Source: Gammaproteobacteria bacterium
GTDB lineage: Bacteria > Pseudomonadota > Gammaproteobacteria > SZUA-140
Direction: 5' to 3'
Length of the DNA: 64,000 bases
NCBI GenBank assembly: GCA_021648525.1
Contig: JAKISP010000001.1
Location: 2,061-66,060 of the forward strand
A program made the translations under genes and the position numbers. Below are positions 28,701 through 63,801 of the stretch, piece after piece. The notes beneath the pieces are model-generated. The model saw only the letters and a list, made by a program, of their open reading frames with translations. It had not been told where the DNA came from and did no database searches. Every line of letters begins with the position of its first letter. Within the stretch, counting starts at the first letter, position 1.

Positions 28701-31635
28701 CTACCGCGGTTTGAATCTGTACCTGAACATCGGTACCCGCCACAGGCAGTGTTTCATTCCAGGACAGAGCACCCAGCAGATTGGTACTATCGATTGTATT
28801 GTAGGGTGAAGAGGTCAACTGCGCCGAATCGACGTAGGTCGTGTAATTAAAGGTAATGTCATTCAAACCAGGTGTTGCATTGACATCTGTCGAAGTCATG
28901 CGAATACGATACTGAGCGTAACGATATGTTGAAAGCAGAGAAATATCACCCGTGTTTAATATGTCCGTCTGCCATGCCGTCCAGGAGCCATCCACCGTCA
29001 GCGCATCACCCGCGCGCACATCAACGGCAAGTGACGTACCGACCGGCAAGTCAGTCGTATAGTTAAGCGTTGAAAAACCAAGGTGCTGACCAAAATCGAT
29101 CACTGAAGATAAATATTCACCCGAAGTAGCATAGGGGCCAAGGTTGAATATCTCCAACCCCCGCGAACCAAGCGTCGCATAGAGCAGGTTTTTATTGGGC
29201 AACGTGCGCAGGATATTATAAGTTGTCCCGGGCTGACTCAACAATAGTTCTGGCGAAGTCGGATTGCTGATATCGAGGACCCTGGCCTGATTGCCACTTG
29301 CTGTATACAGCAGATCACCATTAACCGTAATAGGTGCATAAGAACTCGCTACCAACGAAGAAACAGTGAGCAAGATGGGCGTAGTCGGATCGCTCACATC
29401 ATAAATGTGCAATCCCCCTAGTGTATTCATATAGGCAATATCACCCTTCGCAACGACGAATCCAGGTATCCCGTCAGGGCTGAGAGTATTCACTAACTGA
29501 GGGTCTGTGGGATCTGAAACATCAAAGATCAACATACCATTCGCAGCAGTATTATCGGAAAGATAAACATACCCTTTTATGTAAGAGACATAGAAGGCAG
29601 TTCCAGGGGTATCGTAACTGCCAACCAAAACGGGCGCGGCAGGGTTAGAGACATCAATAATTTCAAGTCCGCCACTCGCAAGAGCACCGAGATAAGCATA
29701 ATTCCCCACCTTCACCACCGAAATAGTCCAGCCTGGTGTTGTCACACCACCCACCGTCACTGGCGAGGTGGGGTTGGTAATATCCACAATACTCAAGCCG
29801 TTCACGGAGGCAACGTAGGCATAGTTACCATCGATATCGACATCGTAAATACGTGAGTTGTTATGAGCGGTGCTCGCGACTAAAAGTGGAGCAGAAGGGT
29901 CTGAAACATCAATAACCCTGAACCGGGAATTAGCATTTCCTGAATCATCCGCGTTATAAAGATACCCATCACGATAAAAAGGCTTTCCGTTCAACCCGTA
30001 AAACACATCATATCGTCCCAGTGAAACTGGAGAAAGCGCAAAACTTAAGCCAATGGAAGCATCTGTGCCATCACCATCAATCTTAATGTTAGTGCCACCC
30101 GCATACTTCAAGTAGCCAATCATCGCATCAAGAAATCCTGGTGTAACAGTGCTATCGGTCGTTGCCAAAGTGATGACATACTGGAAATAACGGCGGTCAC
30201 CCAGGATTGAAACATCAGCGCCACTCGCTACCGATGAGATCGTTATCCAACTGCCATCAAAAATCGGCGTATCACCGGCTCTGACATCGACTGTTATGGC
30301 AGTTCCAGCGGGTGTCGTGTCAACAGTATACTGGAAGGTATTAAAACCATAATGCACCCCTGTATCCATCACCGAGGACTCATACGTCCCCGATGATGGA
30401 TACGTAACCCCACTGCCCAGACTCAGATGGCTAGTACCACTGCTTTGTCCGCCAAGCAGGTCCAGAATCCCATCACTATTGACATCACCCAGTGAAAAGA
30501 CACCTAGAAAACCGACATCGACACCCCCTTCCCATGAAGTATCACGCGCACCCCAGTCAGGTGCGCTCGCGGTACCAATATTGGGATACGCCCAAAAGGT
30601 TCCTGTATTCGTCCCAACAATCAAATCATCTAGACCATCGCCATTCAAATCACCCAGCGCCGGCGCTGAAAAAGAACCAACATCATCCCCGGTCTCCCAT
30701 GTAACCGGCGCACTGGTCGACCAGTCAGGGGACGTAGCACTGCTATTCACAAACGCAAAAATGAAGCCATTCCCAACCCCCGTCACCAGATCAAGGTCAC
30801 CATCATTATCAAGATCTGCTAGTGCGGGCGCTGCAACCGTGTTATTCCCATAATTAATCATGTTCGGGCCATTGAACGCGCTGTTATATTGCCATGCTGG
30901 CGACGATACGGTTCCTATATTTTCAAACCCCATATGTCGCCCATCGTTCACACCCACCAGTAGATCATAATCACCATCGCCATCAAGATCACCCGCCTCA
31001 GGCCGAACATACCCACCAGGAATCGCTGCATAATAGAGGCGCCAGCTTGTTTGAAGCGTCCAGACAGGCGATACCGCCGTGCCTGTGTTTCGATAAGCAT
31101 TAATATAATCATTGCTATATTCGCCGACCATTAAATCCAGCAAACCATCGCCATCCAGATCCACCAACGTGGGCGCAGTATTGGAACCAAGATCGGTGTG
31201 AACATTAAACTGAAGAGCATTCCACGTGGGCGTGGTTCGGGCAAGTGGCGCAATGATAACTCTACCACCCGCTATTTGAGCATCAGCCATATTAGCACCG
31301 GCCATCGAAAAATCAGCCCCCGATGAATGAGACTGAGATTTATCTGCATTTAGTGAAAAATCGCTGTCAGTAGTATGGGTCAGTGAGCGGCTTTCAGTTC
31401 CGAGCTGCAGGTCTGCGCCCGCGTTAACCACTGCCAGCGAGGTATCCTTGTTCGAATAAGTTGTCCAGCTATTTTGATTCCCCGGGTGGATAGCGTTAGT
31501 CGCTGTCGCACCGCCACCCCATGCCCCTTGATTAAAGGTACCGGATGTCGCCGCTGAGACTAAAGGGGGAACAGATAACAACAGGAGTGCAATCGTGACA
31601 ACAACCCTAAGACGAGTTTGGGCGAGGTGCGACAT
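22798..31635 (-). CDS. giant secreted adhesin-like surface protein (~2,945 aa): FG-GAP beta-propellers, LVIVD repeats, tandem Calx-beta-like domains, TSP3-like Ca-binding repeats, GlyGly-CTERM sorting signal
   Basis: A signal peptide (MSHLAQTRLRVVVTIALLLLSVPPLVSAAT) starts from the internal Met at 31635. There are at least two sets of FG-GAP repeats (DLDGDGLLDLMVGE, DLDGDGDYDLLVG, DLNGDGLDDLIVG... and GDVNGDACEDMAVGE, DFDNDGDTDLVIAAS, DIDGNGFNDLLIGA, DFNGDGWLDVIIGG, DINGDGLSDVYASG). LVIVD-type repeats are present (SIVDITNPTSPV, LEIIDVSNPAAP, MLIFDVSDPTDP). At least 10 tandem Calx-beta/cadherin-like modules of about 100 aa have the form ...TFDVVLGNAPASNVTILLQSTD...VTITGVNDD.... D-rich DxDxDG repeats are present (DSDNDGVNDDIELFTDSDGDGLADYLD). 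The C-terminus SGGGGGILHPLWSLVVLSLYGLFITHRKKRIKVC has the GlyGly-CTERM architecture: Gly run, TM helix, basic tail. Confidence 0.9.
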   Translation of the reverse strand: MSHLAQTRLRVVVTIALLLLSVPPLVSAATSGTFNQGAWGGGATATNAIHPGNQNSWTTYSNKDTSLAVVNAGADLQLGTESRSLTHTTDSDFSLNADKSQSHSSGADFSMAGANMADAQIAGGRVIIAPLARTTPTWNALQFNVHTDLGSNTAPTLVDLDGDGLLDLMVGEYSNDYINAYRNTGTAVSPVWTLQTSWRLYYAAIPGGYVRPEAGDLDGDGDYDLLVGVNDGRHMGFENIGTVSSPAWQYNSAFNGPNMINYGNNTVAAPALADLDNDGDLDLVTGVGNGFIFAFVNSSATSPDWSTSAPVTWETGDDVGSFSAPALGDLNGDGLDDLIVGTNTGTFWAYPNIGTASAPDWGARDTSWEGGVDVGFLGVFSLGDVNSDGILDLLGGQSSGTSHLSLGSGVTYPSSGTYESSVMDTGVHYGFNTFQYTVDTTPAGTAITVDVRAGDTPIFDGSWITISSVASGADVSILGDRRYFQYVITLATTDSTVTPGFLDAMIGYLKYAGGTNIKIDGDGTDASIGLSFALSPVSLGRYDVFYGLNGKPFYRDGYLYNADDSGNANSRFRVIDVSDPSAPLLVASTAHNNSRIYDVDIDGNYAYVASVNGLSIVDITNPTSPVTVGGVTTPGWTISVVKVGNYAYLGALASGGLEIIDVSNPAAPVLVGSYDTPGTAFYVSYIKGYVYLSDNTAANGMLIFDVSDPTDPQLVNTLSPDGIPGFVVAKGDIAYMNTLGGLHIYDVSDPTTPILLTVSSLVASSYAPITVNGDLLYTASGNQARVLDISNPTSPELLLSQPGTTYNILRTLPNKNLLYATLGSRGLEIFNLGPYATSGEYLSSVIDFGQHLGFSTLNYTTDLPVGTSLAVDVRAGDALTVDGSWTAWQTDILNTGDISLLSTYRYAQYRIRMTSTDVNATPGLNDITFNYTTYVDSAQLTSSPYNTIDSTNLLGALSWNETLPVAGTDVQVQIQTAVDSGGVPGAWSGWMGPDGSSTTFWNSTDTHSGGCSGIGAISCTSMPPALRDAVADQWVQYKVILVSNLETTPVIATVAVTYNVVNVAGSGVVNVTTVSSSTSEAGGTATFDVVLGNAPASNVTILLQSTDLTEGVLSSPGLLFTTGNWNVTQTVTITGVNDDVDDGDIVYQILVAAAISSDSNYDDKLSPSIAMANLDDDTTGVTVTPNNSVSTTELLGTLSFTVRLDSEPTADVTIGLVSTDTTEGIIDIPSLVFTPLDWATPQALVVTGVDDVIIDTATAYSIDITVTASADSLYAAHDPTDVSLTNTDNEVAGMTTVALFGYDTNESGGFIPLSVRLTSMPTATVTFTLETDDFSEGFVSGNLFGPTTFTIQPADWNTGASVTIVGRNDFDVDGDVPYNIISSAFVSNDSDYNGIDPADIAMTNIDNESYTITVSPTTGLTTTESGGVATFTIKLGAKPTADVVINLSSSDPGEGKVFPASITFPANVAPSAGGTTVTVTGLDDKSTDGNQDYTIQTTLITSDGNYSSVDPADVTVTNQDNNRNIITFDPDVTNGLHGRAVEMIDVNCDGTQDMVVGGDYIFRGDVSVYYGTGDGFSAESDQRIYTVGGDFGNTVVNLGDVNGDACEDMAVGEVGYNAGRGRVHIYYGSATGLSDLDGDGITEIADAALFFYSTNSNGLFGSSVVADDFDNDGDTDLVIAASNFDGDLANEGRVFLYKNYAVEWTTTYGADRTLWPVGYRADGWLDPDNNKTIYVIEEATWDWAFESDQSLSQPGRGAGSMASVNVNGDAYPDLVMGAQLFDNGSVDEGRVYLFYGSASGFNDADADKIAHMTDADWMVESDKFRGYLGSSVADAGDIDGNGFNDLLIGAGRYSIATSTSYEGAVFLFKAGASGGLVTAANGDGIVRTDTESDWSVIGPYNSANYGSDSISSAGDFNGDGWLDVIIGGPGRTLFTAAGGVYVYLNDGLGSLQTTPVFSDKDREVWGSYDYLGTAVGTVGDINGDGLSDVYASGINIESSASTGNEGAVFLYMSNVQVPGVTVTPTVGLVTNESGGSAAFTVVLDAPFAAPSDTLTIDVNSLTTTEGTVDLVQLSFDINNWSTPQMVTITGINDIISDGSIPYIIDLATVVTTDPAYSGIDPDNVSVINEDNDVAVEVAVTSVSAAEGDTGELHFSRSGEITNPLTVDYLVSGTASAGVDYAGLGTSVVIPAGSTYITVPVFFIEDAVLDAAETIIVTLLLGSGYSPGLPADTTLTIADNDIASIIVSQPQTNVTTESGGSVTFSMRLTSEPDDDVTINLSSTNVNEGVVTPSQLLFTSADWGPKTVTVFGVDDGNSVDGDVDYSIVTAVAVSSGDANYNAINADDVLLVNRDNDNSGIPRVNVSATNPTINEASASGLMTFTRIGLTTSSLRVFYATSGNAWPGGDYEMLSGSVDIPVGSNSQTVAIKPIQDITAEGDETIIITLMPSTGYIIDRPSRETIILIDDDTAPVAPFVNFMIDQTIGEGGSITVDVILSGTALSYPVTIPYTVTGTATNPDDHDAVDGNIMIASGVNGSLTVAVSDDGAGDSGETIIFTMGDPTNARKGLRDTHTMTTTELNEAADVALSAVQSTQDRRLVVVTDGNVVVTAVVSDPNPADTHSYSWIASNAMLRAVEIDDADDTTFIFDPTGLADGFYKVRLTATDNGTPNISISSELLLKVVSAAPVLTSVDSDNDGVNDDIELFTDSDGDGLADYLDASTLTGNELQLFSAQTETYIMRTEPGLILRLGDVAFAAGADGAYVTSGDISAYGGGEGNPGTVTTPDTVPNSGGYFDFEIADLPNAGQSVKIVIPQTEAIPIGALYRKYHPVSGWADFVQNGDNSIASAPGLPGICPLPASAKFTAGLTAGDHCVQLTIEDGGPNDMDGQANRVIKDPAQIGAVAVAVESTTAASGGGGGILHPLWSLVVLSLYGLFITHRKKRIKVC

Positions 31636-32222
31636 CAAATAACATACATCATTATAGCCAGCTCTGACTTGATACATCGACCGCCTACCCCTTTTCAAAA
31701 TATCGAATGAAGTTTCTATCTACCATTCCAGGCACTCTATCGTGCTTTTTTCTAGCCATCCATATAACAACAGAAGGCGATATGGCATGAAGACCCATTA
31801 AAATATATCCATATATTTTGATTTTCTGCTCAGATTTTTGTGCGTAGCAAAACCTGAGCTTTAGCGCTATTACCCATGGTTATCGGCCAATCAAAACTAC
31901 TTTGCAAGCATTATCCTACGCTAGAAGCTCAATAATAGCCGCGCCAGGCCTTAAACCTCCTTCTAAAATCAACATTTAACCAATGAATACAATCAGGTAA
32001 CAATATTCCGCATCCTAAAAGCAAAAAAGTAGGTAAAACGGCTAAAAATCACCAATTGTGATAAAGCATACCGGTTGAAAAGGGGAATATTCTACATTGT
32101 GAACCGCAAGGTTAATCATGAGCCTTCGCCAAAAGACTTTTCTGAAATATTAAGGTCAGAATAATACATAAAAAATGTAAAATTATTATAAATCAAAGCA
32201 TTGTATTGTATTGTATTTCAAA

Positions 32223-35151: not shown

Positions 35152-36774
35152 ATGCCCGTGCTGTCTACCGCCAACATTACCATGCAATTCGGTGCCAAAC
35201 CGTTATTTGAAGACATCTCCGTTAAATTTAGTGGCAATAATCGCTACGGTTTGATTGGCGCTAACGGCTGTGGAAAATCAACGCTGATGAAAATCCTTGG
35301 CGGCGATCTTGAACCAAGCGCGGGTAACGTCATCATTGGTGAAAATGAGCGTGTCGGTAAACTACGACAGGATCAATTTGCCTTCGAAGAACACTCCGTC
35401 ATCGACACTGTCATTATGGGGCATGCTGAGCTGTGGAAAGTCAAAAAAGAACGCGACCGCATCTATAGTCTGCCAGAGATGTCAGAAGAAGAAGGAATGA
35501 AAGTGGCTGAGCTCGAAGTTGAATTTGGTGAGCTTGACGGCTACACCGCCGAATCTCGCGCAGGCGAACTACTGCTCGGTCTGGAAATCTCAATAGAACA
35601 GCACTTTGGACTGATGAGCGAAGTAGCACCCGGCTGGAAACTGCGTGTACTACTGGCCCAGGCACTATTCTCTAATCCAGACATCATGCTGCTTGATGAG
35701 CCAACCAATAACCTCGACATCAACACCATTCGCTGGCTCGAAGATATCCTCAACCAGCGTAGTTGCACCATGATTATCATCTCGCATGATCGTCACTTTC
35801 TCAATAGCATCTGTACCCATATGGCTGACCTTGATTACGGCGAGCTACGCATCTATCCAGGCAACTATGATGAGTACATGACGGCAGCAACACTCGTGCG
35901 TGAAAGACAGTACGCCGACAACGCTAAAAAGAAGGCGCAAATCGCAGAGCTGCAAACTTTTGTTAGCCGTTTCTCAGCTAACGCATCAAAAGCAAAACAG
36001 GCAACCTCACGCGCAAAACAGATCGATAAAATCAAGCTCGACGAGATTAAGCCTTCTAGTCGTATCAGCCCTTTTATCCGTTTTGACCAGGAAAAGAAGC
36101 TGCACCGTCTGGCACTGGAAGTGACAGACCTTGCTAGGGGATTTGATGGTGACATTCTGTTTGAAAACCTGAATTTGATGGTGGAAGTTAGCGAACGTAT
36201 CGCGATCATTGGCCCCAATGGTATCGGTAAAACAACCCTGCTACGCAGCCTGGTTGGCGACCTTGTGCCTGACAACGGCCTCGTCAAGTGGTCAGAGAAT
36301 GCAAATCTTGGCTATTTCTCACAGGATCATTCACATGACTTTTCAGACGATATGAGCCTGTTCGACTGGATGAGCCGCTGGGGAAGGCAGGGGGATGATG
36401 AACAGACCATTCGCGGCACCCTGGGCCGCCTGTTATTCTCTCGTGATGAGTGCGAAAAATCAGTTAAGGTTATTTCTGGTGGTGAACAAGGGCGCATGCT
36501 ATTTGGCAAAATCATGCAGCAGCTACCCAACATCATGCTAATGGATGAACCTACCAATCACCTAGATATGGAATCGATCGAAGCACTTAACCTTGCACTG
36601 GCTAACTATCCCGGCACACTGTTTTTCGTAAGTCACGACCGAGAGTTCGTCTCATCATTAGCGACACGCATCATCGAACTAACACCCAATGGACTCGTCG
36701 ATTATCACGGTAGCTATGATGAATACCTACGTAGTCAGGGCATAGAGGAAACAAAGCAGAAAGCTGCTAGCTAA
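35152..36774 (+). CDS. ybiT: ABC-F family ATPase (two ABC ATPase domains, no TMD), YbiT-like
   Basis: It is 540 aa with two Walker A motifs (GANGCGKST and GPNGIGKTT) and two LSGGE signatures. The N-terminus [39 protein letters not shown] closely resembles E. coli YbiT. Confidence 0.8.
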
Positions 36775-36791
36775 AACATCCCGACAACACA

Positions 36792-36844
36792 CTGAGTCAG
36801 GGAAAACCTCTCTGACTCAGCCTCTTCATCCCTCTTTTATTATC
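36792..36844 (+). terminator. intrinsic terminator after ybiT-like gene
   Basis: There is a hairpin CTGAGTCAG-GGAAAACCTCT-CTGACTCAG followed by the T-rich CCTCTTCATCCCTCTTTTATTAT. Confidence 0.4.
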
Positions 36845-37043
36845 TGACACTACCAGATATGAACACGGCTATTATGGCCATGCTTACTGTGGACTATCCT
36901 GTCCACTAAATGCAGAAAGCTGCTGATTCGCAGCTTTAATAATGTTGCTAGCGACTCCCCTCAAAAACACTATCAAAATACCAGCTACCACTCATGCAAA
37001 CATGGCGTTACAATACAGATTGAAAATACAATAACAAATAACG

Positions 37044-37739
37044 ATGCCGTCCTCACAAACGCCCAGGTACAAAATCCGCATCAGCCAGCGAGCCAAACGG
37101 ATGCAGCTCAAAGTGTCCCCGCTCGGCACAATAGAAGTTGTGCTGCCCAAAAACATTAATGCAAAACATGTACCTCTATTTGTGGCAGAACATCAGCACT
37201 GGATCGAGCAGACACAAAAACAGATGGCAGCACTCTATCCGCCCGAAGAGTTACTACCAGGTTCACTCAATTTCGCTGCAACCAATCAACAGTGGCAGTT
37301 AAAATACTGTGAAGGAAAGCGCGCTCGCGTTGCAGAAATCAACAATTCCCTGACAGTCTATAGCCAGGATGACAACGGCGCCCAAAAAGCACTGCAACAG
37401 TGGCTAAATCGACGTGCTGATGAAACACTTATTCCGTGGCTACACAATGTCAGTAATGAACTGAAACTAACATTCAAGCGCGCTATCGTTCGTGCCCAGA
37501 AAACACGCTGGGGCAGCTGCTCATCAAACGGCACCATCAGCATCAACCGCGCGCTGCTATTTATGCCACCCGAGACAGTGCGTTATCTCTTCATTCATGA
37601 ACTATGCCATACAAAAGAGATGAATCACTCACCTCGCTACTGGGCATTCGTCGAAAGCCACATGCCCGGCTACCAACAGCATGAACAGATATTAAGCAAA
37701 GGCATAAGACTGATTCCACGCTGGGCACTCATCACATAA
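37044..37739 (+). CDS. YgjP/DUF45-family zinc metallopeptidase-fold hydrolase (M48-like)
   Basis: The core is RWGSCSSNGTISINRALLFMPPETVRYLFIHELCHTKEMNHSPRYWAFV with the HExxH motif. Confidence 0.8.
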   Translation: MPSSQTPRYKIRISQRAKRMQLKVSPLGTIEVVLPKNINAKHVPLFVAEHQHWIEQTQKQMAALYPPEELLPGSLNFAATNQQWQLKYCEGKRARVAEINNSLTVYSQDDNGAQKALQQWLNRRADETLIPWLHNVSNELKLTFKRAIVRAQKTRWGSCSSNGTISINRALLFMPPETVRYLFIHELCHTKEMNHSPRYWAFVESHMPGYQQHEQILSKGIRLIPRWALIT

Positions 37740-37764
37740 AACTGCGTTTACTCAATAACGCACA

Positions 37765-38040
37765 TTGCCATACAGGGAGATACAAATGAACAAGTTATGC
37801 CAAAGCTGTGGAATGCCTCTGAAACGCGACCCTAACCGTGGTGGCAGCAATGCAGATGGCAGTAAAAGCAACGACTATTGCAGCCACTGTTACGTCAATG
37901 GTGCCTTTGCTCAACCAGAAATAAACGCCGCAGAGATGCGCCAACTCTGCATTAATAATATGACTGCCGGCGGCGTTCCAAAAATTTTAGCGCGGTTACT
38001 CACAAAGAGAATTCCAGAACTCAAACGCTGGTCGGCTTAA
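37765..38040 (+). CDS. putative zinc-ribbon domain protein
   Basis: It is 91 aa with CQSCGMP...CSHCYVNG (Zn_ribbon_2-like). An AGGGAGA Shine-Dalgarno is present. Confidence 0.6.
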   Translation: MPYREIQMNKLCQSCGMPLKRDPNRGGSNADGSKSNDYCSHCYVNGAFAQPEINAAEMRQLCINNMTAGGVPKILARLLTKRIPELKRWSA

Positions 38041-38194
38041 TAAAGATGCAATCAGTCAGCAATTCGCCTATACAATGAGGCAGGTTTAATCATCCACCAA
38101 ACATCACCCGCTGATGACCATCAGCGCTTTCAACCTGTGGGCTCCTCTATAACGACAGCACTTAGCAATACACAAAGCAAAAAGTCACGCTATA

Positions 38195-38383
38195 ATGATC
38201 GTTCACACAATTGGATTACACAATATGAATCGTGGTTATGCCGCTTTATACCTGATTACAGCTGTATTCTTTTATCTCGGGTGGAAGACGCGAAAAACAA
38301 ACCCGCTGCTGTCAACCGCACTGTATACCGTTGCAACCATTATCACCGTGCTATTAATTGGCGGCCACTTTGGGTTGCTCTGA
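38195..38383 (+). CDS. possible small two-TM membrane protein
   Basis: It is a 62-aa ORF in the convergent gap between the Zn-ribbon and VanZ-like genes. It has two hydrophobic segments (ALYLITAVFFYLGW and ALYTVATIITVLLIGG). There is no clear Shine-Dalgarno. Confidence 0.3.
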   Translation: MIVHTIGLHNMNRGYAALYLITAVFFYLGWKTRKTNPLLSTALYTVATIITVLLIGGHFGLL

Positions 38384-38392
38384 CAAAGCAAG

Positions 38393-39328
38393 TTACGGAA
38401 TCAAGCGAATATCATCCAGATAAAATTCCCGTCGCATCTCTGTTCTGCTCAGAAATAAAATCATCTTTCTAACTTTACCCAGGTCTAACAGACGTGATTT
38501 AGGCCCATTAACAACATCAGCCAATGGAATCAAAAGCGTATTGGCTCCAGTATTAATCTGATACTGTCCATTATATCGATCACCATAATCCGGCGAGTTA
38601 CTGCTCCCATCATCAATACGAATATTCAGTTTAAATGGTTTACCAACATTATAAAGCTCAATATTTAAGAATTGGTAACCGCGCCAGTCCTGATCTCCCG
38701 CCGAGTAGCGCGCACCACTCCAGGTATTATCGGTCGTTTTCGTTTTTAGTGACTTCGAGCCAACGACAACATGCTTATCTGAAAGCGATGTAGAGGTACC
38801 GATACCATGCGCCTTCCACAGCCTTTTTTCTAAATCACGCTCAAAACCACCCAATACTGGAAATTGTTGATCTCGCAACCACACGGCACGCCACTCGTTC
38901 AACGCAGGTTGCACTACCCAGACTAGCGTCAACACTAACAATAACAGGTAAACTCCTTTGAACAGCTGACGCGACTGTCTACGCCAGACAATTATCCCAC
39001 TGAGCGCGAGAAATACCCCTAGCAACCCCATCTGCACATCTGCAAATGATGCCGTTCTTCCAACATAAGGCTGTACCAGCTCAACGGCAACCATTAACAA
39101 CACAGAGATTACCATTGAGAAGACTATCGCACGCCATTCTCCATATGGTTCAACAGCAAAATAAAATAAGCCACTCAACAAAATAAAGGCAAATGCATGC
39201 CCAGCATCCATTGTTTTCATCACTGCAACTGGATTAGCACTACTACCAAATGGCACAAACGCAAGCAGCGCAAAGAGCGCCAGCATGACAAAAACCGCCA
39301 TCAGATAAGTTTGTTTAAATACGGCCAT
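38393..39328 (-). CDS. VanZ-like family membrane protein with C-terminal extracytoplasmic domain
   Basis: The N-terminal roughly 120 aa carry 4 TM helices in VanZ-like arrangement (FAFILLSGLFYF...VISVLLMVAVELVQPYVGRTASFADV). The C-terminal roughly 180 aa form a beta-rich domain of unknown function. Confidence 0.6.
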   Translation of the reverse strand: MAVFKQTYLMAVFVMLALFALLAFVPFGSSANPVAVMKTMDAGHAFAFILLSGLFYFAVEPYGEWRAIVFSMVISVLLMVAVELVQPYVGRTASFADVQMGLLGVFLALSGIIVWRRQSRQLFKGVYLLLLVLTLVWVVQPALNEWRAVWLRDQQFPVLGGFERDLEKRLWKAHGIGTSTSLSDKHVVVGSKSLKTKTTDNTWSGARYSAGDQDWRGYQFLNIELYNVGKPFKLNIRIDDGSSNSPDYGDRYNGQYQINTGANTLLIPLADVVNGPKSRLLDLGKVRKMILFLSRTEMRREFYLDDIRLIP

Positions 39329-39353
39329 TTAGATTTAAGTACTCATTCAACTT

Positions 39354-40061
39354 TTATCGAGAAAGAAATGAAATCATCCACTGCGCAATCAACTGTTCAT
39401 CTGTTCGCTGCTGCAATGAATCGATGCCGGCAGTATAAACTGATGCGCCCAATCGTTTACGACGAAAGCCCATTAAGGCCTCTGCATAAGGTTTTGAGAA
39501 CTCAGGGTGTCCCTGAATCGTAAGAATACTCTCATCTAGCTGAAACATCGCATACGGACAAAAATCACTGCCTGCAATTAATTTAGCCCCTGGTGGCAAT
39601 TCATCTACCTGATCCTGGTGACTCACCAGCACATGGCACACACCATCCATTGGCGTTGCCTCCATCCAGGGCACAGCAGTTGCCACCCGCATCGCGTGCA
39701 CACCCACCCCCCACCCTTTATCAGATTGACTTATTTTACCACCAAAAGCCTGAGCCACTAATTGATGACCAAAGCAGATCGCAATTAGCTTTATTTTCAC
39801 CTTTCGTAACCGAATAATAAAGGCCTGCAATACCCTGATCCACGCATTATCATCATATACACTGGCCTTACTACCCGTAGTGATATAGGCATCACACGCA
39901 TCAAGCGATGCAGGATAATGGCCAGCGACTACATCATAGACCTCATAGCTGAAAGCGCGCGCTAGCGGATGAAATAGAGAGGTGATCATCTCAGGATAGT
40001 CTCCGTACTGGCCCTTAAACTGCGATCTCACCGAGTCACACCGCAAGATCCCAACTTTCAT
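39354..40061 (-). CDS. class I glutamine amidotransferase-like hydrolase (gamma-glutamyl-amide hydrolase candidate, PuuD-like)
   Basis: The GATase1 catalytic Cys context is LIAICFGHQLVAQAFGG, with a His/Glu dyad region (TIQGHPEF). It is divergent from the GS-like ligase gene. Confidence 0.75.
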   Translation of the reverse strand: MKVGILRCDSVRSQFKGQYGDYPEMITSLFHPLARAFSYEVYDVVAGHYPASLDACDAYITTGSKASVYDDNAWIRVLQAFIIRLRKVKIKLIAICFGHQLVAQAFGGKISQSDKGWGVGVHAMRVATAVPWMEATPMDGVCHVLVSHQDQVDELPPGAKLIAGSDFCPYAMFQLDESILTIQGHPEFSKPYAEALMGFRRKRLGASVYTAGIDSLQQRTDEQLIAQWMISFLSR

Positions 40062-40200
40062 TTATTCATGCCCTTTAAAAAATCCATTAAAAAAAACCTG
40101 TTAAGAACATTTGAATTACGCGATAGTATTAGATACTTTATATCTATCGCTCCTATAATAGATAAGCAGTTTCGCACGATAACAAGGAAAAAGCGCCATA

Positions 40201-41568
40201 ATGCACGCCAGAGAAGTTAAGAGTATTGCCGATGCAAAAAACATCGTCAATGAGCGTAATATCCGTCATATAAAAATTGGTATTTTCGATATTGACGGTG
40301 TGTTACGCGGTAAATATATCTCACGAGACAAGTTCTTTTCTGCCCTCGACAAAGGCGCTGGTTTTTGCGATGTCGTTCTGGGCTGGGATAGCAAAGACCA
40401 GCTCTACGACAATGTTGATTTCACTGGCTGGCACACTGGCTATCCCGATGCACCTGTCCGTATCATCCCAGATTCGTGCCGCGACATCCCATTTGAAGAA
40501 GAGACACTCTTTTTCCTCGGCGAGTTTACCGCTGATGCAGCAGCACTCTGTCCTCGTGGACTGCTACAGCGCACGATCGAAAAAGCCAGTCAAATGGGCC
40601 TCTTTCCTAACGCTGGCTTTGAGTATGAGTTTTTCATCTTCGAAGAAACACGCGAATCCATTCGCAAAAAACAGTATCGAGATTTAACCCCGCTAGCACC
40701 TGGCAACTTTGGCTATTCGGTACTGCGCAATAGTGTAGATGCTGAAATCTACCAGCAAATCCTTGATCTTGGTGAAACAATGGATTTTCCAATCGAAGCA
40801 CTGCATGAAGAGACCGGCCCCGGCGTACTTGAAGCCGCCATCACTTACGACAGCGCCCTCAACGCCGCAGATAAGGCCGCCCTGTTCAAAACCTTCACCA
40901 AAATAGCAGTGCAACGCGCCGGACTGATGGCAACCTTCATGGCAAAATGGTCAGCAAACCACCCAGGGCAGAGTGGCCACATACATATCTCCCTCAATGA
41001 TGCTGAAGGCACCTCAATTTTTTATGATGCTAACAAACCAGATAACATGAGTGATACCATGCGCCATTTTGTTGCAGGCCAGCAACAATTCATGCCTGAA
41101 TTACTTGCCATGATCGCACCAACCATCAACTCGTACACTCGTCTGGTGCCGGGTTTTTGGGCACCCACCGTTGCCACCTGGGGTGTTGAAAATCGCACAT
41201 GTGCGCTACGCGTTATCACTGGTAACGCCAGCGCTCAACGTGTCGAATACCGGGTTGCGGCTGCTGATGCTAACCCTTACATCATCCTCGCTGCTGCACT
41301 GGCCTCAGGGCTAGCCGGTATTGAGCAGAAACTAGCGCCTGACGATAAGGTGAGTGGCAACGCCTATGAACAACAATTCCCCGCTGAGCGCCAACTACCC
41401 ACCACCCTGTGGGAGGCCGCGCAACGACTTAAAGGATCAAGCATGGCAAGGGGATATTTTGGAGATCACTTTGTCGATCACTACACCGCGAGTCGAGAGT
41501 GGGAGGAACGCGAATTCCGCAAACATATCACCGATTGGGAAATGGACCGCTACTTTGAGATCATATGA
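40201..41568 (+). CDS. glutamine synthetase-family gamma-glutamyl:amine ligase (PuuA/GlnA3/IpuC-like)
   Basis: It is 455 aa with a GS catalytic domain (GFEYEFFIF, MAKWSANHPGQSGHIHISL, NPYIILAAALASGLAGIE). It lacks the GlnA adenylylation-loop context. Confidence 0.85.
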   Translation: MHAREVKSIADAKNIVNERNIRHIKIGIFDIDGVLRGKYISRDKFFSALDKGAGFCDVVLGWDSKDQLYDNVDFTGWHTGYPDAPVRIIPDSCRDIPFEEETLFFLGEFTADAAALCPRGLLQRTIEKASQMGLFPNAGFEYEFFIFEETRESIRKKQYRDLTPLAPGNFGYSVLRNSVDAEIYQQILDLGETMDFPIEALHEETGPGVLEAAITYDSALNAADKAALFKTFTKIAVQRAGLMATFMAKWSANHPGQSGHIHISLNDAEGTSIFYDANKPDNMSDTMRHFVAGQQQFMPELLAMIAPTINSYTRLVPGFWAPTVATWGVENRTCALRVITGNASAQRVEYRVAAADANPYIILAAALASGLAGIEQKLAPDDKVSGNAYEQQFPAERQLPTTLWEAAQRLKGSSMARGYFGDHFVDHYTASREWEEREFRKHITDWEMDRYFEII

Positions 41569-42950
41569 TGCCGACCTTTAAAGTTATCTCACCCAACAAT
41601 AATCGCAGCTATGTAGAACGCACTTATGCGACCAATGCAAAGATCGAACACACACTGGAAAAGTCATTATTTGCACAGCGTGAATGGCGCAACACCCCTG
41701 TTGAGGTGCGAAAGAAAATCTGTCTCAAAGCCGTCAGCGCACTATTAGCAAGGCAATCAAGCATCGCCGAAGAGTTAAGTTGGCAGATGGGACGCCCCCT
41801 ACGCTACACCCCAGGTGAAATAAAAGGCTTTGCCGAGCGCGCTCGCCATATGGCCAGAATTGCCGCAAACAAACTTACCGATATTGAGATAGAGAGATCA
41901 ACAGAAAGCACAAAATTGATTCGCCGCACGCCACACGGCATTGTCTTCTCCATCGTGCCGTGGAACTACCCCTATCTCACCGCTGTGAATGTGATCATTC
42001 CTGCATTAATGGCCGGTAATAGCGTTATCATGAAGCCCTCATCGCAAACACCACTCACTGCTGAGCGCCTCTTTGATGCCTTTGACACGGCAGGCTTACC
42101 CGCCGGCCTGTTTCAGTACCTCTTTCTTGACCACCCCAGCACTGCAAAATTGATTCAGCACGATGCGATCAACTATGTCTCTTTTACCGGTTCAACTCAG
42201 GGCGGGCGCGACATTGAAGCCGCTGCCGTAGGACGTTTTATCGGTATCGGCCTGGAACTTGGCGGCAAAGACCCCGCCTATGTACGTCATGATGCCGAAC
42301 TAGAACATGCCGTTGAACATTTGATCGACGGGGCATTTTTTAATTCTGGACAATCCTGTTGCGGCATTGAACGAATTTATGTTCACAAAACGCTCTACCA
42401 GCAGTTTTGTGACAATTTTATTGAATTGACTCGTGAATACCGCCTCGGTGATCCGCTCCACCCCGATACCACACTCGGCCCGATGGTTAACGCCATTGCT
42501 GCCACACGCGTACGCGATCAAATCAGCGATGCAATTAAACAAGGGGCCACACCAACCATTGATGAAAAACGTTTTACAGCAAGCAAGGCTGGCACCGCTT
42601 ACCTTGCCCCACAAGTGCTGCTGAATGTTGACCATTCCATGTCAGTCATGCGCGATGAAAGCTTTGGGCCTGTCGTCGGCATTATGTCTGTCGATTCAGA
42701 TGAACAGGCGATCAAGCTAATGAACGACTCACCTTACGGCCTGACGGCCTCAATCTGGACCACCGATCAGGAATCGGCACTGAACATCGGCAACCAATTG
42801 GAGACAGGAACCTGTTTCATGAATCGCTGTGACTACCTCGATCCAGCACTGGCATGGAGCGGTGTGAAAAACTCAGGAAAAGGCTGCTCGCTTTCAGAGC
42901 TTGCCTATGAACGCCTCACCCAGCCAAAGTCATTTTATTTTAGTCACTGA
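41565..42950 (+). CDS. NAD(P)+-dependent aldehyde dehydrogenase
   Basis: ALDH motifs are present: the ELGGKDP Glu site, catalytic Cys in GQSCCGIERIYV, and FTGSTQGG. Its start overlaps the ligase stop (ATGA). Confidence 0.9.
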   Translation: MMPTFKVISPNNNRSYVERTYATNAKIEHTLEKSLFAQREWRNTPVEVRKKICLKAVSALLARQSSIAEELSWQMGRPLRYTPGEIKGFAERARHMARIAANKLTDIEIERSTESTKLIRRTPHGIVFSIVPWNYPYLTAVNVIIPALMAGNSVIMKPSSQTPLTAERLFDAFDTAGLPAGLFQYLFLDHPSTAKLIQHDAINYVSFTGSTQGGRDIEAAAVGRFIGIGLELGGKDPAYVRHDAELEHAVEHLIDGAFFNSGQSCCGIERIYVHKTLYQQFCDNFIELTREYRLGDPLHPDTTLGPMVNAIAATRVRDQISDAIKQGATPTIDEKRFTASKAGTAYLAPQVLLNVDHSMSVMRDESFGPVVGIMSVDSDEQAIKLMNDSPYGLTASIWTTDQESALNIGNQLETGTCFMNRCDYLDPALAWSGVKNSGKGCSLSELAYERLTQPKSFYFSH

Positions 42951-42958
42951 CAAAAGCC

Positions 42959-44140
42959 ATGAAAAAGAGCAGCAATAAATTACACGGTAACTGGAATTAC
43001 CCCACCACCCTGTGGTTCGGCGCTGAGCGTATCACAGAGCTTGCCACCGCCTGCAAAACACTCAACATGCGCCACCCATTACTCGTCACTGACCCCGGCC
43101 TCAGTCGGCTGCCAATGGTGAGTGAGGCGCTCTCCTATAACAAAGCACAGGGCATTCCCACCGGGCTATTCAGTGATATTAAGCCCAATCCAAACGGCTT
43201 AAATATCGAGAATGGCATTAAGTATTACCGTCAAAATAAACATGACGGTGTCATCGCTTTTGGCGGCGGCAGTGCACTTGATGCAGGCAAGGCGATTGCG
43301 CTAATGAGTGGGCAGACACAGCCACTGTGGGCATTCGAAGATACCGGTGATAACTGGCAGCGTGTCGACAGTAACGGAATTGCCCCCATCATTGCAGTGC
43401 CCACCACCTCCGGCACAGGCTCAGAGGTAGGCCGAGCATCACTTATTGTCGATGAAGAAAAACATTGTAAAAAAATCATTTTTCATCCCAGAATGCTACC
43501 CAGCATTGTTATTGCCGACCCACAACTCACTACCGGACTACCCGCCAATATCACCGCCGCAACCGGCATGGATGCGCTTTCCCACAACCTTGAGGCATAC
43601 TGCGCCCCAGCCTACCACCCGATGGCAGATGGCATCGCACTGGAAGGAATGCGCCTGATCAAAGAGTGGCTCATCATTGCCTGCGAAGAGCCACAAAACA
43701 TTGAAGCGCGTAGCCAGATGATGATCGCATCCACCATGGGGGCAACCGCTTTTCAGAAAGGACTCGGTGCAATGCACGCCCTCGCCCACCCAATCGGGGC
43801 AATTTATGATGCACATCACGGCCTGCTCAATGCCATCCTGATGCCCTATGTCTTACTCAGGAACCGCCCTGCAATTGACACTCGCATGCGACACCTGGCA
43901 CGTTATCTCGAACTCGATGGTAACGACTTTGACGCGGTATTCGACTACATCATCACCTTACGCGCTCACATCGGTATTCCTGATGATTTGCGCAGCATTG
44001 GCATCGACGAGCACCGTATTGATGAGATCGCCACCCTGGCACTGCAGGACCCCTCCGCTGCTGGTAATCCTGTTCCACTGACTCAGGCGCAATATTCAAC
44101 ACTACTCAGCGACGCGATCAACGGCAACTTAAAGAATTAA
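42959..44140 (+). CDS. iron-containing (group III) alcohol dehydrogenase
   Basis: Fe-ADH motifs are present: GGGSALDAGKAIA, and His ligands in MHALAHPIGAIYDAHHG. Confidence 0.9.
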   Translation: MKKSSNKLHGNWNYPTTLWFGAERITELATACKTLNMRHPLLVTDPGLSRLPMVSEALSYNKAQGIPTGLFSDIKPNPNGLNIENGIKYYRQNKHDGVIAFGGGSALDAGKAIALMSGQTQPLWAFEDTGDNWQRVDSNGIAPIIAVPTTSGTGSEVGRASLIVDEEKHCKKIIFHPRMLPSIVIADPQLTTGLPANITAATGMDALSHNLEAYCAPAYHPMADGIALEGMRLIKEWLIIACEEPQNIEARSQMMIASTMGATAFQKGLGAMHALAHPIGAIYDAHHGLLNAILMPYVLLRNRPAIDTRMRHLARYLELDGNDFDAVFDYIITLRAHIGIPDDLRSIGIDEHRIDEIATLALQDPSAAGNPVPLTQAQYSTLLSDAINGNLKN

Positions 44141-44304
44141 GAAACCGCTGAATAAAGCCTGCTTTTCAGCATAAAACAAGGGTAATAGCGTTAAAAGAGC
44201 ACGCGCCATTACCTGCTGGTCGAATCTAAAGTGACTGCGTTATAGTTTTAAGAAAAATTGCCGATCAATTCTATAGTCCATTCTATTTCTTAACACCTGA
44301 TAAC

Positions 44305-45210
44305 ATGCTGAAGATATTAAAATTTTTTTCCAAAAAGAGAGCAACAACCAGCCAATCAGCAAGCGTGCGCGTGGTACTGGACAGTGCCCGACTATGCCAA
44401 CTGCTGCCCTATTTTCCCATCGGAGCTAATCTCAGGTATTTTCCAGAATACAGGCAAGAAATAACTCTGGACTCCATCATTATTGCCTACTTAATAAATG
44501 ATGAGGTTATTTACTCAAACAATGATCTCTCCACTACAGATGATAACCATCATTTGATATTGAATGGCGCTATGGTTGATGAAATCAACAACTTTGCTTT
44601 TCTCATTCCTGCCGTCAGCCGCAACGAAACTGAGCTGGACTACGAACAAAAAGAAATACTGGAACAGAGCGGTGGCCTGGCAAAAGGCAATAGCATAACC
44701 TTAATCGGACAGCAAACCGACGGCAAGATCCCATTCATTGACACGCTGGTAACAAAACATACGCGCTTCAAAGAAGGGCATTTCAACAACACTCAAGTGG
44801 TTGCGCTCAATGTCGATCCAACGCTATTAGAACTGAAGGACCAACGAAGTCAAACAAGGTTAGCCGCAAAAATCCCTGCTCTGATACAGACAAAGCTCTA
44901 TAACGAGAAACATCAATGCACCCTTATCGATTTCTCAGAACACACGGTCAAAATCTGCTGTGATGATAATGAAATAATTTCGATAAGCTGCACGAAAGGT
45001 GAAATAATCACCCTCACATTCAACCTTCCCTCCAGTACCACACCTAAAGTCATGAAAGGCAGAGTACTTAAAATTGATGGCCCAGCACTGATTGCCGAAC
45101 TTGAAGAAATACTGGTTGACCAACGATTCAAGAAGCTCACCACCCTCGATATTTTAGAGATTAAAACCAAATTACTTCAGCAACCACTAACATCAACTAA
45201 CACGACATAA
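44305..45210 (+). CDS. hypothetical protein, possible degenerate PilZ-like C-terminal domain
   Basis: This is the first gene of the AT-rich island. RSQTR (RxxxR) is followed about 25 aa later by DFSEHT, resembling the PilZ RxxxR...DxSxxG pattern but lacking the Gly. Confidence 0.45.
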   Translation: MLKILKFFSKKRATTSQSASVRVVLDSARLCQLLPYFPIGANLRYFPEYRQEITLDSIIIAYLINDEVIYSNNDLSTTDDNHHLILNGAMVDEINNFAFLIPAVSRNETELDYEQKEILEQSGGLAKGNSITLIGQQTDGKIPFIDTLVTKHTRFKEGHFNNTQVVALNVDPTLLELKDQRSQTRLAAKIPALIQTKLYNEKHQCTLIDFSEHTVKICCDDNEIISISCTKGEIITLTFNLPSSTTPKVMKGRVLKIDGPALIAELEEILVDQRFKKLTTLDILEIKTKLLQQPLTSTNTT

Positions 45211-45275
45211 ACAACTCATTTAGCCCCGTAAATGCCATCACAACGAGTGATCACACGCGCATCAAAGTCGCCTGT

Positions 45276-45824
45276 TTATCTACCAATAAAATTGCACTGC
45301 TCATCATCGGTTAAGGTGACATTGCTCTGCTCCAGTTTCAATAAGCGTTTTTTTGTTGTCAACCCGCCAGCATAACCAACCAATCGCCCGTCACTTCCAA
45401 TTATGCGATGGCAAGGTATAATTAATCCGATAGAATTTGCACCATTAGCAGCAGCTACTGCTCGAACAGACTTCTGATTATTGATGTTTTTTGCCAATTG
45501 CAGATAGGTTGATGTAACGCCATAAGGAACTTTCATCAATGCGCACCAGACTTTTTTCTGGAAATCAGTTCCTACTGTTAAAAGTGGAATATCAAATTTT
45601 TGTCTATCACCACTAAGATACTCGCCGAGTTGATTCCTTGTTTTTTCCAACACCTCATGATCCTGCTCAACATACTCGGCATTCAGTCCTTTTTTTATCC
45701 TGTTATCTACGGTTATTCTCATTCTTCTATGTTTAAAATCAAGAAGACACAATTGATGCTGAAATGAACCCAGTATCATTTCACCAACCCTGGATTTGTA
45801 ATGTTGTATGTTAATTTGATTCAT
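45276..45824 (-). CDS. ogt: methylated-DNA--protein-cysteine methyltransferase (Ogt/MGMT)
   Basis: The active site is IPCHRIIGSDG and the DNA-binding helix is TYLQLAKNINNQKSVRAVAAANGANSIGLIIPCHR. I chose Met 45824 because its ATG overlaps the upstream gene's TGA (ATGA). Confidence 0.8.
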   Translation of the reverse strand: MNQINIQHYKSRVGEMILGSFQHQLCLLDFKHRRMRITVDNRIKKGLNAEYVEQDHEVLEKTRNQLGEYLSGDRQKFDIPLLTVGTDFQKKVWCALMKVPYGVTSTYLQLAKNINNQKSVRAVAAANGANSIGLIIPCHRIIGSDGRLVGYAGGLTTKKRLLKLEQSNVTLTDDEQCNFIGR

Positions 45825-46600
45825 CTTTCTGTGAATAGACAGCAAAATGATTGCGTGTCTTTAATCTCCGTCAAAATGGCTTTTAGGTTATCATTCGTTT
45901 TGCTGTATACAAATGGCCCCATGCTTATTCTCTTTACCCCAATTCGCTCAAGAATCGAAAAATCTGGCAAATTGGACACTGCCATGACATTCACCGGCAG
46001 AGACACGCTATCGACAAGACACTTGATTTCATTTTCATCTGAAATACAAGGGATGAATATTCCATCGGCTCCCGCTTCTTCGTAAAGCTTTGCTCGTGAC
46101 ATTGACTGGTTTAAAGCATTATCAAGGCCGATGACATAAGGATCCGTTCGAATATTTAAAAAAATATTTATATTTTTTTCGAGAAAATATTGTTTTATCG
46201 ATTTAATTGTTTCAACGAAAATTGTTGAATCGACCAGATTTCTATTACCATCTTCGACGATAGAATCTTCTAGATTAACACCAACCACACCCAACTGACT
46301 TAACAGGACAATATTCTCTATTATTTTGCTATTTTTCCTGCTGTATCCTGCTTCAATATCAACTGTTAGTGGGATAGTGATTTTCGATACAATAGATTGA
46401 ACGACAGAATAAAGTTCATCAAAAGATATCTGTTCACCATCTTCATACCCTAGTGAACTAGCAATTGCAGCACTTGAGGTACCCAATGCTTTAAAGCCCA
46501 TTTTTTCAAACATTAACGCACTTTGTACATCCCACACGTTACCAATCAATAATGACTGTTTTTTCTGGTGTGATAAATTAAACGCCTGGAAGTGACTCAT
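45821..46600 (-). CDS. isocitrate lyase/PEP mutase superfamily enzyme (not bona fide PEP mutase)
   Basis: It has the ICL/PEPM TIM-barrel pattern (LLIGNVWDVQSALMFEKMGFKALGTSSAAIA...VDIEAGY...GVNLEDS...GADGIFIPC). It lacks the EDKxxxxxNS motif of true PEP phosphomutases. Confidence 0.75.
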   Translation of the reverse strand: MSHFQAFNLSHQKKQSLLIGNVWDVQSALMFEKMGFKALGTSSAAIASSLGYEDGEQISFDELYSVVQSIVSKITIPLTVDIEAGYSRKNSKIIENIVLLSQLGVVGVNLEDSIVEDGNRNLVDSTIFVETIKSIKQYFLEKNINIFLNIRTDPYVIGLDNALNQSMSRAKLYEEAGADGIFIPCISDENEIKCLVDSVSLPVNVMAVSNLPDFSILERIGVKRISMGPFVYSKTNDNLKAILTEIKDTQSFCCLFTER

Positions 46601-63332: not shown

Positions 63333-63801
63333 GATTCAGCAACCACTGCTTAAAATCTAATTCGGCACCATCGCGTTGCCCATTAAAACCACCCAGGCCA
63401 TTCGCTGCAACGATTCGATGACACGGCACTACAATCGGTACTGGGTTACGGCGGCAGGCGCCACCGACTGCCCGTGCAGCACTCTTTAGTGCGGTTGCAG
63501 CATCACCATAAAGGCGTGTCTCACCAACTGGAATTGCACACATAAACTGCCAGACACGCTGTTGAAAGTCACTACCCTGTAATACCAGCGGTAGTGAAAA
63601 CGGCCGTTGTGAGTCTTCAAAATAACACTGTAATTGATGCACAACCTCTTGTGACACCGCGTCAATCGGCACTTTAGTTTGCATATTCATTGAAAGCAGG
63701 TCAATGCTCGCCAGCTCATCTCCCACCACCAGAATACCAAGGCGTATCGAGTCAATAGGAGTAGCAATTACGGCATCATAACTTAGCGGGTCGGCAAGCA
63801 T
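63319..63801 (-). CDS. methylated-DNA--protein-cysteine methyltransferase (second Ogt/MGMT paralogue)
   Basis: The active site is VPCHRIVAANG. The helix-turn-helix region is YGDAATALKSAARAVGGACRRNPVPIVVPCHR. Its 3' end overlaps the xerD start by 14 nt. Confidence 0.8.
   Translation of the reverse strand: MLADPLSYDAVIATPIDSIRLGILVVGDELASIDLLSMNMQTKVPIDAVSQEVVHQLQCYFEDSQRPFSLPLVLQGSDFQQRVWQFMCAIPVGETRLYGDAATALKSAARAVGGACRRNPVPIVVPCHRIVAANGLGGFNGQRDGAELDFKQWLLNHEKQ

Follow-up and report, generated by a model that had tools for sequence, protein, structure and literature searches.

The window analysed here is a stretch of 64,000 nucleotides (64 kb) from contig JAKISP010000001.1 of a Gammaproteobacteria bacterium (assembly GCA_021648525.1). 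It contains a four-gene cassette encoding a glutamine synthetase (GS)-like ligase, an aldehyde dehydrogenase (ALDH), an iron-containing alcohol dehydrogenase (Fe-ADH) and a hydrolase of the class-I glutamine-amidotransferase (GATase1) fold, considered here as a candidate route for the catabolism of ethanolamine. Each of the four open reading frames (ORFs) that an earlier note had placed at this locus was found at exactly the same coordinates (Table 1). The gene arrangement it described, a ligase-ALDH-Fe-ADH operon with a divergent hydrolase gene, was also recovered. The stop codon of the ligase gene and the start codon of the ALDH gene share an ATGA at 41565-41568, and the gap between the ALDH and Fe-ADH genes is 8 nt. 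A 139-bp intergenic region lies between the ligase operon and the divergent hydrolase gene.

The window is ordinary chromosomal sequence, with guaA, guaB, xseA and the genes of glutamate dehydrogenase, fumarase, RhlE, an ABC-F ATPase and YgjP among its contents. The statement of the same note that no transporter or regulator is adjacent to the cassette holds. A tblastn search of the whole 64-kb window found no homologs of EAT, EtoX, PuuP, PuuR, PuuB or a class-III aminotransferase, and both the TRAP transporter EtoX and the RpiR regulator of the canonical proteobacterial ethanolamine cluster are absent from it.

Table 1. Positions of the cassette genes, the divergent spacer and the adjoining VanZ/CBM11 gene (window coordinates unless a related locus is named).
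Feature	Coordinates	Strand	Description
Hydrolase gene	39354..40061	-	235 aa, class-I glutamine-amidotransferase fold, PF00117
Divergent intergenic region, putative control region and candidate operator	40062..40200	.	Promoter-like site and TAGATA/TATCTA hexamers
GS-like ligase gene	40201..41568	+	455 aa, Gln-synt_C
ALDH gene	41565..42950	+	461 aa, Aldedh
Fe-ADH gene	42959..44140	+	393 aa, Fe-ADH and ADH_Fe_C
VanZ-like/CBM11-like gene	38393..39328	-	311 aa, next gene 3' of hydrolase gene; membership in the system uncertain
VanZ/CBM11 gene in locus L001	6177-7112		
VanZ/CBM11 gene in locus L090	8187-9149		
VanZ/CBM11 gene in locus L093	7001-7948		

Enzymes of the cassette

The ligase contains the full GS catalytic domain (Gln-synt_C, 343 bits, E 1.6e-102) and scores below all NCBIfam cutoffs, with 236.5 bits against a cutoff of 429 for GlnA (TIGR00653), 218 against 470 for GSIII and 205.7 against 650 for GGputSyn. 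The residues of GS which bind the metal, ATP and glutamate are kept. The equivalents of the ammonium site are altered, as Tyr179, Glu327 and Asn264 of E. coli GlnA correspond to Phe170, Trp320 and Pro255 of the ligase. Together, the sub-cutoff scores and the changed ammonium site point to a gamma-glutamyl-amine ligase of unnamed specificity. The marks of a true GSI enzyme are lacking, since the GlnA equivalog cutoff is missed and both Tyr179 and Glu327 are replaced. Judged by these features, the product of 40201..41568 is a GS-like, ATP-dependent gamma-glutamyl-amine ligase and not a glutamine synthetase.

The plasmid locus L085 of Paracoccus denitrificans served as the sequence reference for the canonical ethanolamine cluster. 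Proxies were used for two further systems. The ligase of S. viridifaciens plasmid pKVP1 represented GlnA4 (SCO1613) and was chosen by the composition of its cluster (permease, GS, C26, ALDH and short-chain dehydrogenase/reductase (SDR)), and a gene of plasmid pTC1 of Paenarthrobacter aurescens TC1 represented IpuC. Among functionally named ligases, the highest identity of the window ligase is to the IpuC-annotated protein (39%). It is 33.9% identical to the P. denitrificans ligase, 32.7% to the GlnA4-like proxy, 31.7% to PDB 5dm3 (presumably Csal_0679), 31% to PuuA and 25% to GlnA.

A neighbour-joining tree (18 sequences, 100 bootstraps) places the window ligase in a clade, supported at 100%, which is separate from the canonical ethanolamine ligases. 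The latter form one clade with the GlnA4-like Streptomyces ligase, also at 100%. PuuA branches outside the clade of the window ligase, and the IpuC-annotated ligase is placed in a different clade. The best match of the ligase among solved structures is PDB 11zs (232 bits), which is labelled "Glutamine synthetase, catalytic domain". This structure is not in the clade of the window ligase; it falls in the canonical ethanolamine-ligase clade and is 54.5% identical to the ligase of P. denitrificans and 65% identical to homologs from Sinorhizobium.

Nearer relatives of the window ligase include proteins paired with a transaminase (Rhodobacteraceae M382) or a P450 (Sagittula). On the Rhodobacteraceae M382 plasmid (L082), genes for an aminotransferase, an N-formylglutamate amidohydrolase (FGase), a GS and an ALDH lie by a polyamine-type ABC transporter. 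Plasmid pBVIE01 of B. vietnamiensis G4 (L083) carries RpiR, GS, ALDH and GATase genes by a Na+/solute symporter, and a Sagittula stellata plasmid (L084) carries GS, GATase and P450 genes by a TRAP system. The sister ligases of these three loci are 51-55% and 37% identical to the window ligase. One ligase scaffold appears to have been reused there for other amines.

The two dehydrogenases are closer to the canonical cluster. The ALDH, an NAD(P)-dependent enzyme by annotation (Aldedh, 413 bits, E 1.6e-123), retains its catalytic Glu231 (ELGGK) and Cys265 (NSGQSC). The Fe-ADH matches the Fe-ADH (E 1e-45) and ADH_Fe_C (E 2e-43) domains, with a GGGSALD motif at 102-108 and the Asp205/His209 motif. 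Over their full length, the ALDH and Fe-ADH are 51.9% and 51.8% identical to the enzymes of the P. denitrificans cluster, and the gene order is shared. The Fe-ADH is 61% identical to its counterpart in a Legionella lytica cassette and just 30% identical to an unrelated Fe-ADH paralog in L038. On these grounds, both are regarded as orthologs of the published dehydrogenases of the proteobacterial ethanolamine pathway.

The top NCBIfam matches bear other names, 4-hydroxybutyrate dehydrogenase for the Fe-ADH (341 bits) and succinic semialdehyde dehydrogenase for the ALDH (327 bits). Taken literally, they would describe adjacent genes with separate functions, in which the dehydrogenases oxidise 4-hydroxybutyrate via succinate semialdehyde, and nitrogen assimilation is the task of the GS-like and GATase proteins. 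Such an arrangement is highly improbable. The scores are far under the cutoffs of 500 and 521, and the canonical-cluster dehydrogenases have the same sub-threshold top matches; the names therefore carry no weight. The synteny of the four genes also spans Gamma-, Alpha- and Betaproteobacteria, Desulfobacterota and Nitrospirota, and the ligase is without the ammonium-site residues of true GS, with 236 of 429 bits on the GlnA model.

The hydrolase matches PF00117 at 47 bits, and its top NCBIfam match is PRK05665 'amidotransferase' (236 bits, cutoff 309). The triad motifs are present as Cys96 (ICFGHQ) and His185 with Glu187 (HPE). The protein stands alone, without a second or synthase domain, and gamma-glutamyl peptidase 1 (9k7i, 77 bits) is its best match among solved structures. 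Because the triad is intact, the protein is stand-alone and the nearest solved relative is a gamma-glutamyl peptidase, it is proposed to be the gamma-glutamylglycine (gamma-glutamyl amide) hydrolase which would perform the last step of the pathway. The earlier description of this protein as PuuD-like is apt for its fold and role and wrong for its family. It is not a Peptidase_C26 member, and no BLASTP match at E <= 1e-3 was obtained with either E. coli PuuD or the Streptomyces C26 hydrolase. No homolog of FGase was found in the window.

The resemblance to the Puu pathway raises the prospect that a polyamine (putrescine or cadaverine) is gamma-glutamylated, as the GS-like ligase, ALDH and GATase-fold hydrolase mirror puuA, puuC and puuD, and one related cluster (ligase 51% identical) adjoins a spermidine/putrescine-type ABC transporter and a transaminase. 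This is very unlikely for the window. The ligase stands apart from PuuA, a separation on which the earlier interpretation had depended: it reaches 206 of 650 bits on the PuuA model (GGputSyn), besides the low identity and the position of PuuA in the tree. The partners of the pathway are missing, with no PuuB-type oxidase, aminotransferase, PuuP or PuuR in the 64 kb; queries with PuuB, PuuD and a class-III aminotransferase gave only marginal tblastn matches to the unrelated guaA and a flavoprotein. The hydrolase belongs to another family, and a glutamylated diamine has no alcohol on which the conserved Fe-ADH could act. Both the Puu and the 4-hydroxybutyrate readings were rejected on the sub-cutoff scores, the same matches of the canonical enzymes and the absence of the Puu partners.

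Related loci and the proposed ethanolamine route

Related loci were collected in a scan of one genome per species, in which more than 580 stretches encode relatives of the ligase. Neighbourhoods were counted in the best 80 loci (ligase 64-91% identical), 45 of them with full flanks, and neighbouring genes were called by tblastn of reference proteins. The relatives come from hundreds of species of Gamma-, Alpha- and Betaproteobacteria, Desulfobacterota, Nitrospirota and others. Cultured carriers include Steroidobacter gossypii S1-65, Modicisalibacter muralis DSM 14789, Legionella lytica PCM 2298, Desulfopila sp. IMCC35008 and Dongia soli D78. Among genomes, the nearest match is L001, from a metagenome-assembled genome of Thiotrichaceae, where the ligase is 91% identical and the local synteny is shared.

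Among the fully flanked loci, 43/45 have an ortholog of the ALDH and 41/45 an ortholog of the Fe-ADH, nearly always in the order ligase, ALDH, ADH. Hydrolase orthologs (39-54% identity) were found in about 20 of the 80 loci and in 15/45 with full flanks. The ortholog usually lies directly after the ADH gene on the same strand, and its divergent placement in the window arose by local rearrangement in the Thiotrichaceae lineage. A Legionella lytica plasmid, where the hydrolase ortholog is 44% identical, has the row annotated as 'glutamine synthetase / aldehyde dehydrogenase / iron-containing alcohol dehydrogenase / GMP synthase'. In view of the synteny across relatives and of this row, the four genes are considered to form one conserved module. 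The variant with the second ligase and the GATase1 hydrolase is widespread, and its members are annotated just as 'glutamine synthetase' and 'GMP synthase'.

At least four types of hydrolase occur beside these clusters: FGase, GATase1, Peptidase_C26 and possibly an M81 peptidase. The last of these was seen in Steroidobacter-type and related loci without a GATase1 gene (L012, L013, L014, L015, L021, L028, L047, L053, L054, L061 and L079), where a gene for an MlrC-like M81 metallopeptidase is found nearby, upstream of the transporter and ligase genes. The best NCBIfam match of this protein is the microcystinase MlrC at 199 bits, far under the cutoff of 999. It is possible that the M81 peptidase is a further replacement for the gamma-glutamylglycine hydrolase.

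Transporter genes in the related loci bear on the substrate. An EAT-like permease of the APC family is encoded immediately upstream of the ligase in 22/80 loci, and among NCBIfam models it matches TIGR00908, the equivalog for ethanolamine permease, best (359 bits). Three further loci of the 80 have a distant APC permease in the same position. A TRAP binding protein with 61-72% identity to the EtoX homolog of P. denitrificans is encoded in 10/80 loci. This homolog matches PDB 4uab (567 bits), which is taken here to be the ethanolamine-bound structure of Csal_0678. An EAT-like permease or an EtoX-like TRAP protein lies beside the ligase in 25 of the 45 fully flanked loci. The transporters which recurrently adjoin this ligase clade are of ethanolamine types only.

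In four loci of Dongia and Dongiaceae (L062, L063, L070 and L075), genes resembling those of glycerol kinase and glycerol-3-phosphate oxidase are inserted between the ALDH and Fe-ADH genes. This suggests a combined locus for the utilisation of glycerophosphoethanolamine.

It is proposed, with a probability of about 0.68, that the cassette serves ethanolamine catabolism by gamma-glutamylation. The observations behind this proposal are the gene content, the operon packing, the intact catalytic motifs, the conserved synteny and the recurrence of ethanolamine transporters in relatives. In the first step, ethanolamine would be coupled to the gamma-carboxyl group of glutamate by the GS-like ligase at the expense of ATP, with gamma-glutamylethanolamide as the product. 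The free hydroxyl of this product would then be oxidised to the aldehyde by the Fe-ADH, and the resulting gamma-glutamyl-aminoacetaldehyde would be converted to gamma-glutamylglycine by the ALDH. Finally, the GATase1-fold protein would act as a cysteine hydrolase, releasing glycine and regenerating glutamate. The net reaction would be ethanolamine + ATP + 2 NAD(P)+ -> glycine + ADP + Pi + 2 NAD(P)H. A route of this kind would need no B12-dependent ammonia-lyase and would not produce free acetaldehyde. The substrate, the order of steps and the part given to the hydrolase are drawn from homology and genomic context. The earlier note had favoured the glutamylation of an amino alcohol, and this view gains support from the conserved ligase-ALDH-Fe-ADH order, the ethanolamine transporter neighbours and the 52% identity of the dehydrogenases to the canonical enzymes.

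Several points weigh against the assignment to ethanolamine. No ethanolamine transporter or regulator lies near the cassette in the window or in L001, L090 and L093, its closest relatives, which makes the substrate call for this lineage dependent on relatives of 64-70% identity. The EAT-like permease falls just under the curated cutoff of its model (359 against 381.75 bits). The ligase is only 32-34% identical to the ligases of published clusters tied to ethanolamine. The subclade of ADH-containing loci is separated from its ADH-less relative, B. vietnamiensis G4, by a bootstrap of just 51%. No enzyme activity or growth phenotype for any member of the ligase clade was found in the literature searched.

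The same chemistry could act on another primary amino alcohol in the transporter-less Thiotrichaceae lineage, with 3-aminopropanol (to beta-alanine), 4-aminobutanol (to GABA), alaninol or serinol as candidates. In addition to the missing transporters in the window, L001, L090 and L093, it can be noted that ligases of neighbouring clades take varied amines, such as the IpuC-annotated protein and those of the transaminase or P450 clusters, and that putative amine-site positions differ slightly within the clade. Another substrate is nevertheless unlikely, although the substrate in this lineage, with its lack of a linked transporter, is the main residual doubt. Only ethanolamine-type transporters recur beside ligases of this clade, the window ligase is 64-68% identical to those linked to them, and both dehydrogenases are 52% identical to enzymes of the canonical ethanolamine pathway.

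The absence of a transporter would also be explained if the cassette detoxified or salvaged internal ethanolamine from phosphatidylethanolamine turnover, rather than supporting growth on an external supply. A protective function of this kind has been described for GlnA4, which shields Streptomyces from an excess of ethanolamine (PMC6529630, PMC9397018). This role is improbable for the window lineage, and it differs from ethanolamine catabolism for growth in physiology alone, as the mechanism would be the same. The genome may carry a transporter gene at another place, and ethanolamine in its uncharged form can enter the cell by diffusion.

Putative control region and neighbouring genes

The divergent spacer contains inverted repeats at 40132-40173 and a sigma-70-like match (10/12) that ends in TATAAT at 40154-40159. 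Three TAGATA/TATCTA hexamers surround the TATAAT within 40100-40175. This stretch is almost invariant between the window and L001, with an 18-nt indel just downstream. The repeat region is a candidate operator. The number of promoter-like sites in the region is not above chance, and the counts from the scan for promoters and terminators did not exceed those in shuffled sequence. The terminator scan did not find a clear terminator after the Fe-ADH gene. No riboswitch or leader came up in an Rfam scan of 36500-46000 (E <= 1), which returned only a snoRNA-like match attributed to chance.

The gene directly 3' of the hydrolase gene encodes a protein with a VanZ-like membrane domain of five helices and a C-terminal beta-sandwich resembling CBM11. 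It matches the NCBIfam model vanZ_1 at 28 bits (cutoff 20), and the CBM_11 match is weak. In an AlphaFold2 (AF2) model with a pLDDT of 85, the C-terminal domain matches CtCBM11 structures (Foldseek E 4e-9). The model and fold search returned the fold of a carbohydrate-binding module, and nothing in them tied the protein to amine metabolism. This gene occupies the same position in the window, L001, L090/L091 and L093, despite differing wider flanks; in L090, the two genes overlap by 11 nt. The family is small (about 21 clusters), and two homologs (L094 and L095; 55-56%) lie away from the cassette, which means the linkage is not universal. The gene is inherited with the hydrolase gene in the Thiotrichaceae lineage, and its membership in the pathway is uncertain.

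A wider conjecture is that the Thiotrichaceae cassette handles a different, perhaps envelope-derived amino alcohol, with the VanZ/CBM11 protein acting in its capture or sensing. The odds on this are poor. If true, it would add a new substrate and a new accessory component to the gamma-glutamylation pathways.

Beyond the Fe-ADH gene, the part of the window between about 44000 and 50000 has a GC content of 0.39-0.41, compared with about 0.48 elsewhere. Genes in this stretch encode a weak-PilZ protein, an Ogt-like methyltransferase domain, a member of the PEP-mutase/isocitrate-lyase family, NUDIX and tautomerase proteins and a phage-lysozyme-like protein. It may be a horizontally acquired segment that begins right after the Fe-ADH gene. 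A DNA-binding domain of 6-O-methylguanine-DNA methyltransferase is present in two separate genes on the minus strand, at 62400-63801 and at 45276-45845. The methyltransferase-domain gene at 63319-63801 and the start of an XerC/D-like tyrosine recombinase gene overlap. A giant ORF of 2966 aa at 22798-31698 (minus strand), with FG-GAP, LVIVD and Calx-beta repeats, probably encodes a large surface or adhesion protein.

Comparison with known systems

A proteobacterial pathway with exactly these enzymes (GS-like, ALDH and Fe-ADH) is already published, of which the earlier note was unaware. It is encoded in Phaeobacter sp. MED193 by the operon MED193_10021-10056 (Westermann et al. 2023; PMC10132767). 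This operon contains RpiR, a gamma-glutamylglycine amidohydrolase and the EtoVWX TRAP transporter, followed by three pathway enzymes, namely ethanolamine gamma-glutamylase, gamma-glutamylacetaldehydeamide dehydrogenase and gamma-glutamylethanolamide dehydrogenase (PMC10132767). The proteins of the operon were induced during growth on phosphoethanolamine (PMC10132767). In PMC6529630 and PMC10132767, ethanolamine gamma-glutamylation is also placed in Chromohalobacter salexigens (neighbourhood of Csal_0678) and Agrobacterium tumefaciens C58, and the cited source for the proteobacterial pathway in PMC10132767 is Vetting et al. 2015. In actinomycetes, gamma-glutamylethanolamide is the product of GlnA4 (SCO1613) from Streptomyces coelicolor (Krysenko et al. 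2019; PMC6529630). The later steps were predicted to proceed via an SDR, an ALDH and an amidohydrolase of SCO1610-1615 (PMC6529630). As the logic is known from both Proteobacteria and actinomycetes, the cluster of the window is not categorically new.

The gene order of the P. denitrificans reference locus is that of the MED193 operon, with RpiR, the amidohydrolase (an FGase), TRAP, GS-like ligase, ALDH and Fe-ADH. The window cassette resembles the canonical cluster in its enzyme logic, in the order GS-like ligase-ALDH-Fe-ADH and in its orthologous dehydrogenases. An EtoX-type TRAP transporter also flanks some members of its ligase clade. There are three differences. The window ligase is not orthologous to ligases of the Csal_0679 or MED193_10046 type, the two groups forming separate clades with 100% support. 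The window hydrolase has a GATase1 fold and is non-homologous to the canonical N-formylglutamate amidohydrolase. Neither the EtoX TRAP transporter nor the RpiR regulator is present.

With respect to the literature searched, the novelty lies in the combination: the two dehydrogenases are the known ones, but they are paired with a GS-like ligase of a different clade and a hydrolase of the GATase1 fold. Ethanolamine derived from phosphatidylethanolamine is among the major labile sources of both nitrogen and carbon. Surveys of ethanolamine use in the ocean have been based on the canonical cluster and on EtoX (PMC10132767). If this second ligase lineage, with its GATase1-fold hydrolase, does handle ethanolamine as well, the B12-independent glutamylation route would be more widespread and more modular than described, and the ligase of one pathway would have at least two origins. 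The result is useful for genome annotation and for the study of pathway evolution, and overturns no concept.

The earlier note had drawn a parallel to GlnA4 and to the Ipu system. The enzyme logic of GlnA4 is shared, whereas the descent of the ligase is neither of the GlnA4 type nor of the IpuC type in the neighbour-joining tree with its proxies. In the GlnA4 pathway, as in the route proposed for the window, ethanolamine is glutamylated, oxidised twice and hydrolysed to glycine and glutamate, and the hydrolase has an amidotransferase-type fold. In contrast to the window, the proxy ligase (33% identical) groups with the canonical Eto ligases, the first dehydrogenase is an SDR in place of an Fe-ADH, and the hydrolase is a Peptidase_C26 protein with no BLASTP similarity detected to the window hydrolase.

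The IpuC-annotated gene of pTC1 is similar to the window in that its GS-like ligase adjoins stand-alone GATase-fold hydrolases. The Ipu logic differs in requiring a monooxygenase (P450 and ferredoxin) to hydroxylate the glutamylated amine, and none is adjacent to the window cassette. With the Puu pathway of E. coli, the window has in common the activation of an amine as a gamma-glutamyl amide by a GS-like enzyme, an ALDH which acts on a gamma-glutamyl aldehyde and a cysteine hydrolase of the GATase fold. The identity of the enzymes is low (31% to PuuA and 30% to PuuC, with no detectable similarity to PuuD). The aldehyde in the Puu pathway arises from an amine by means of an oxidase, whereas in the proposed route it would arise from an alcohol through the Fe-ADH.

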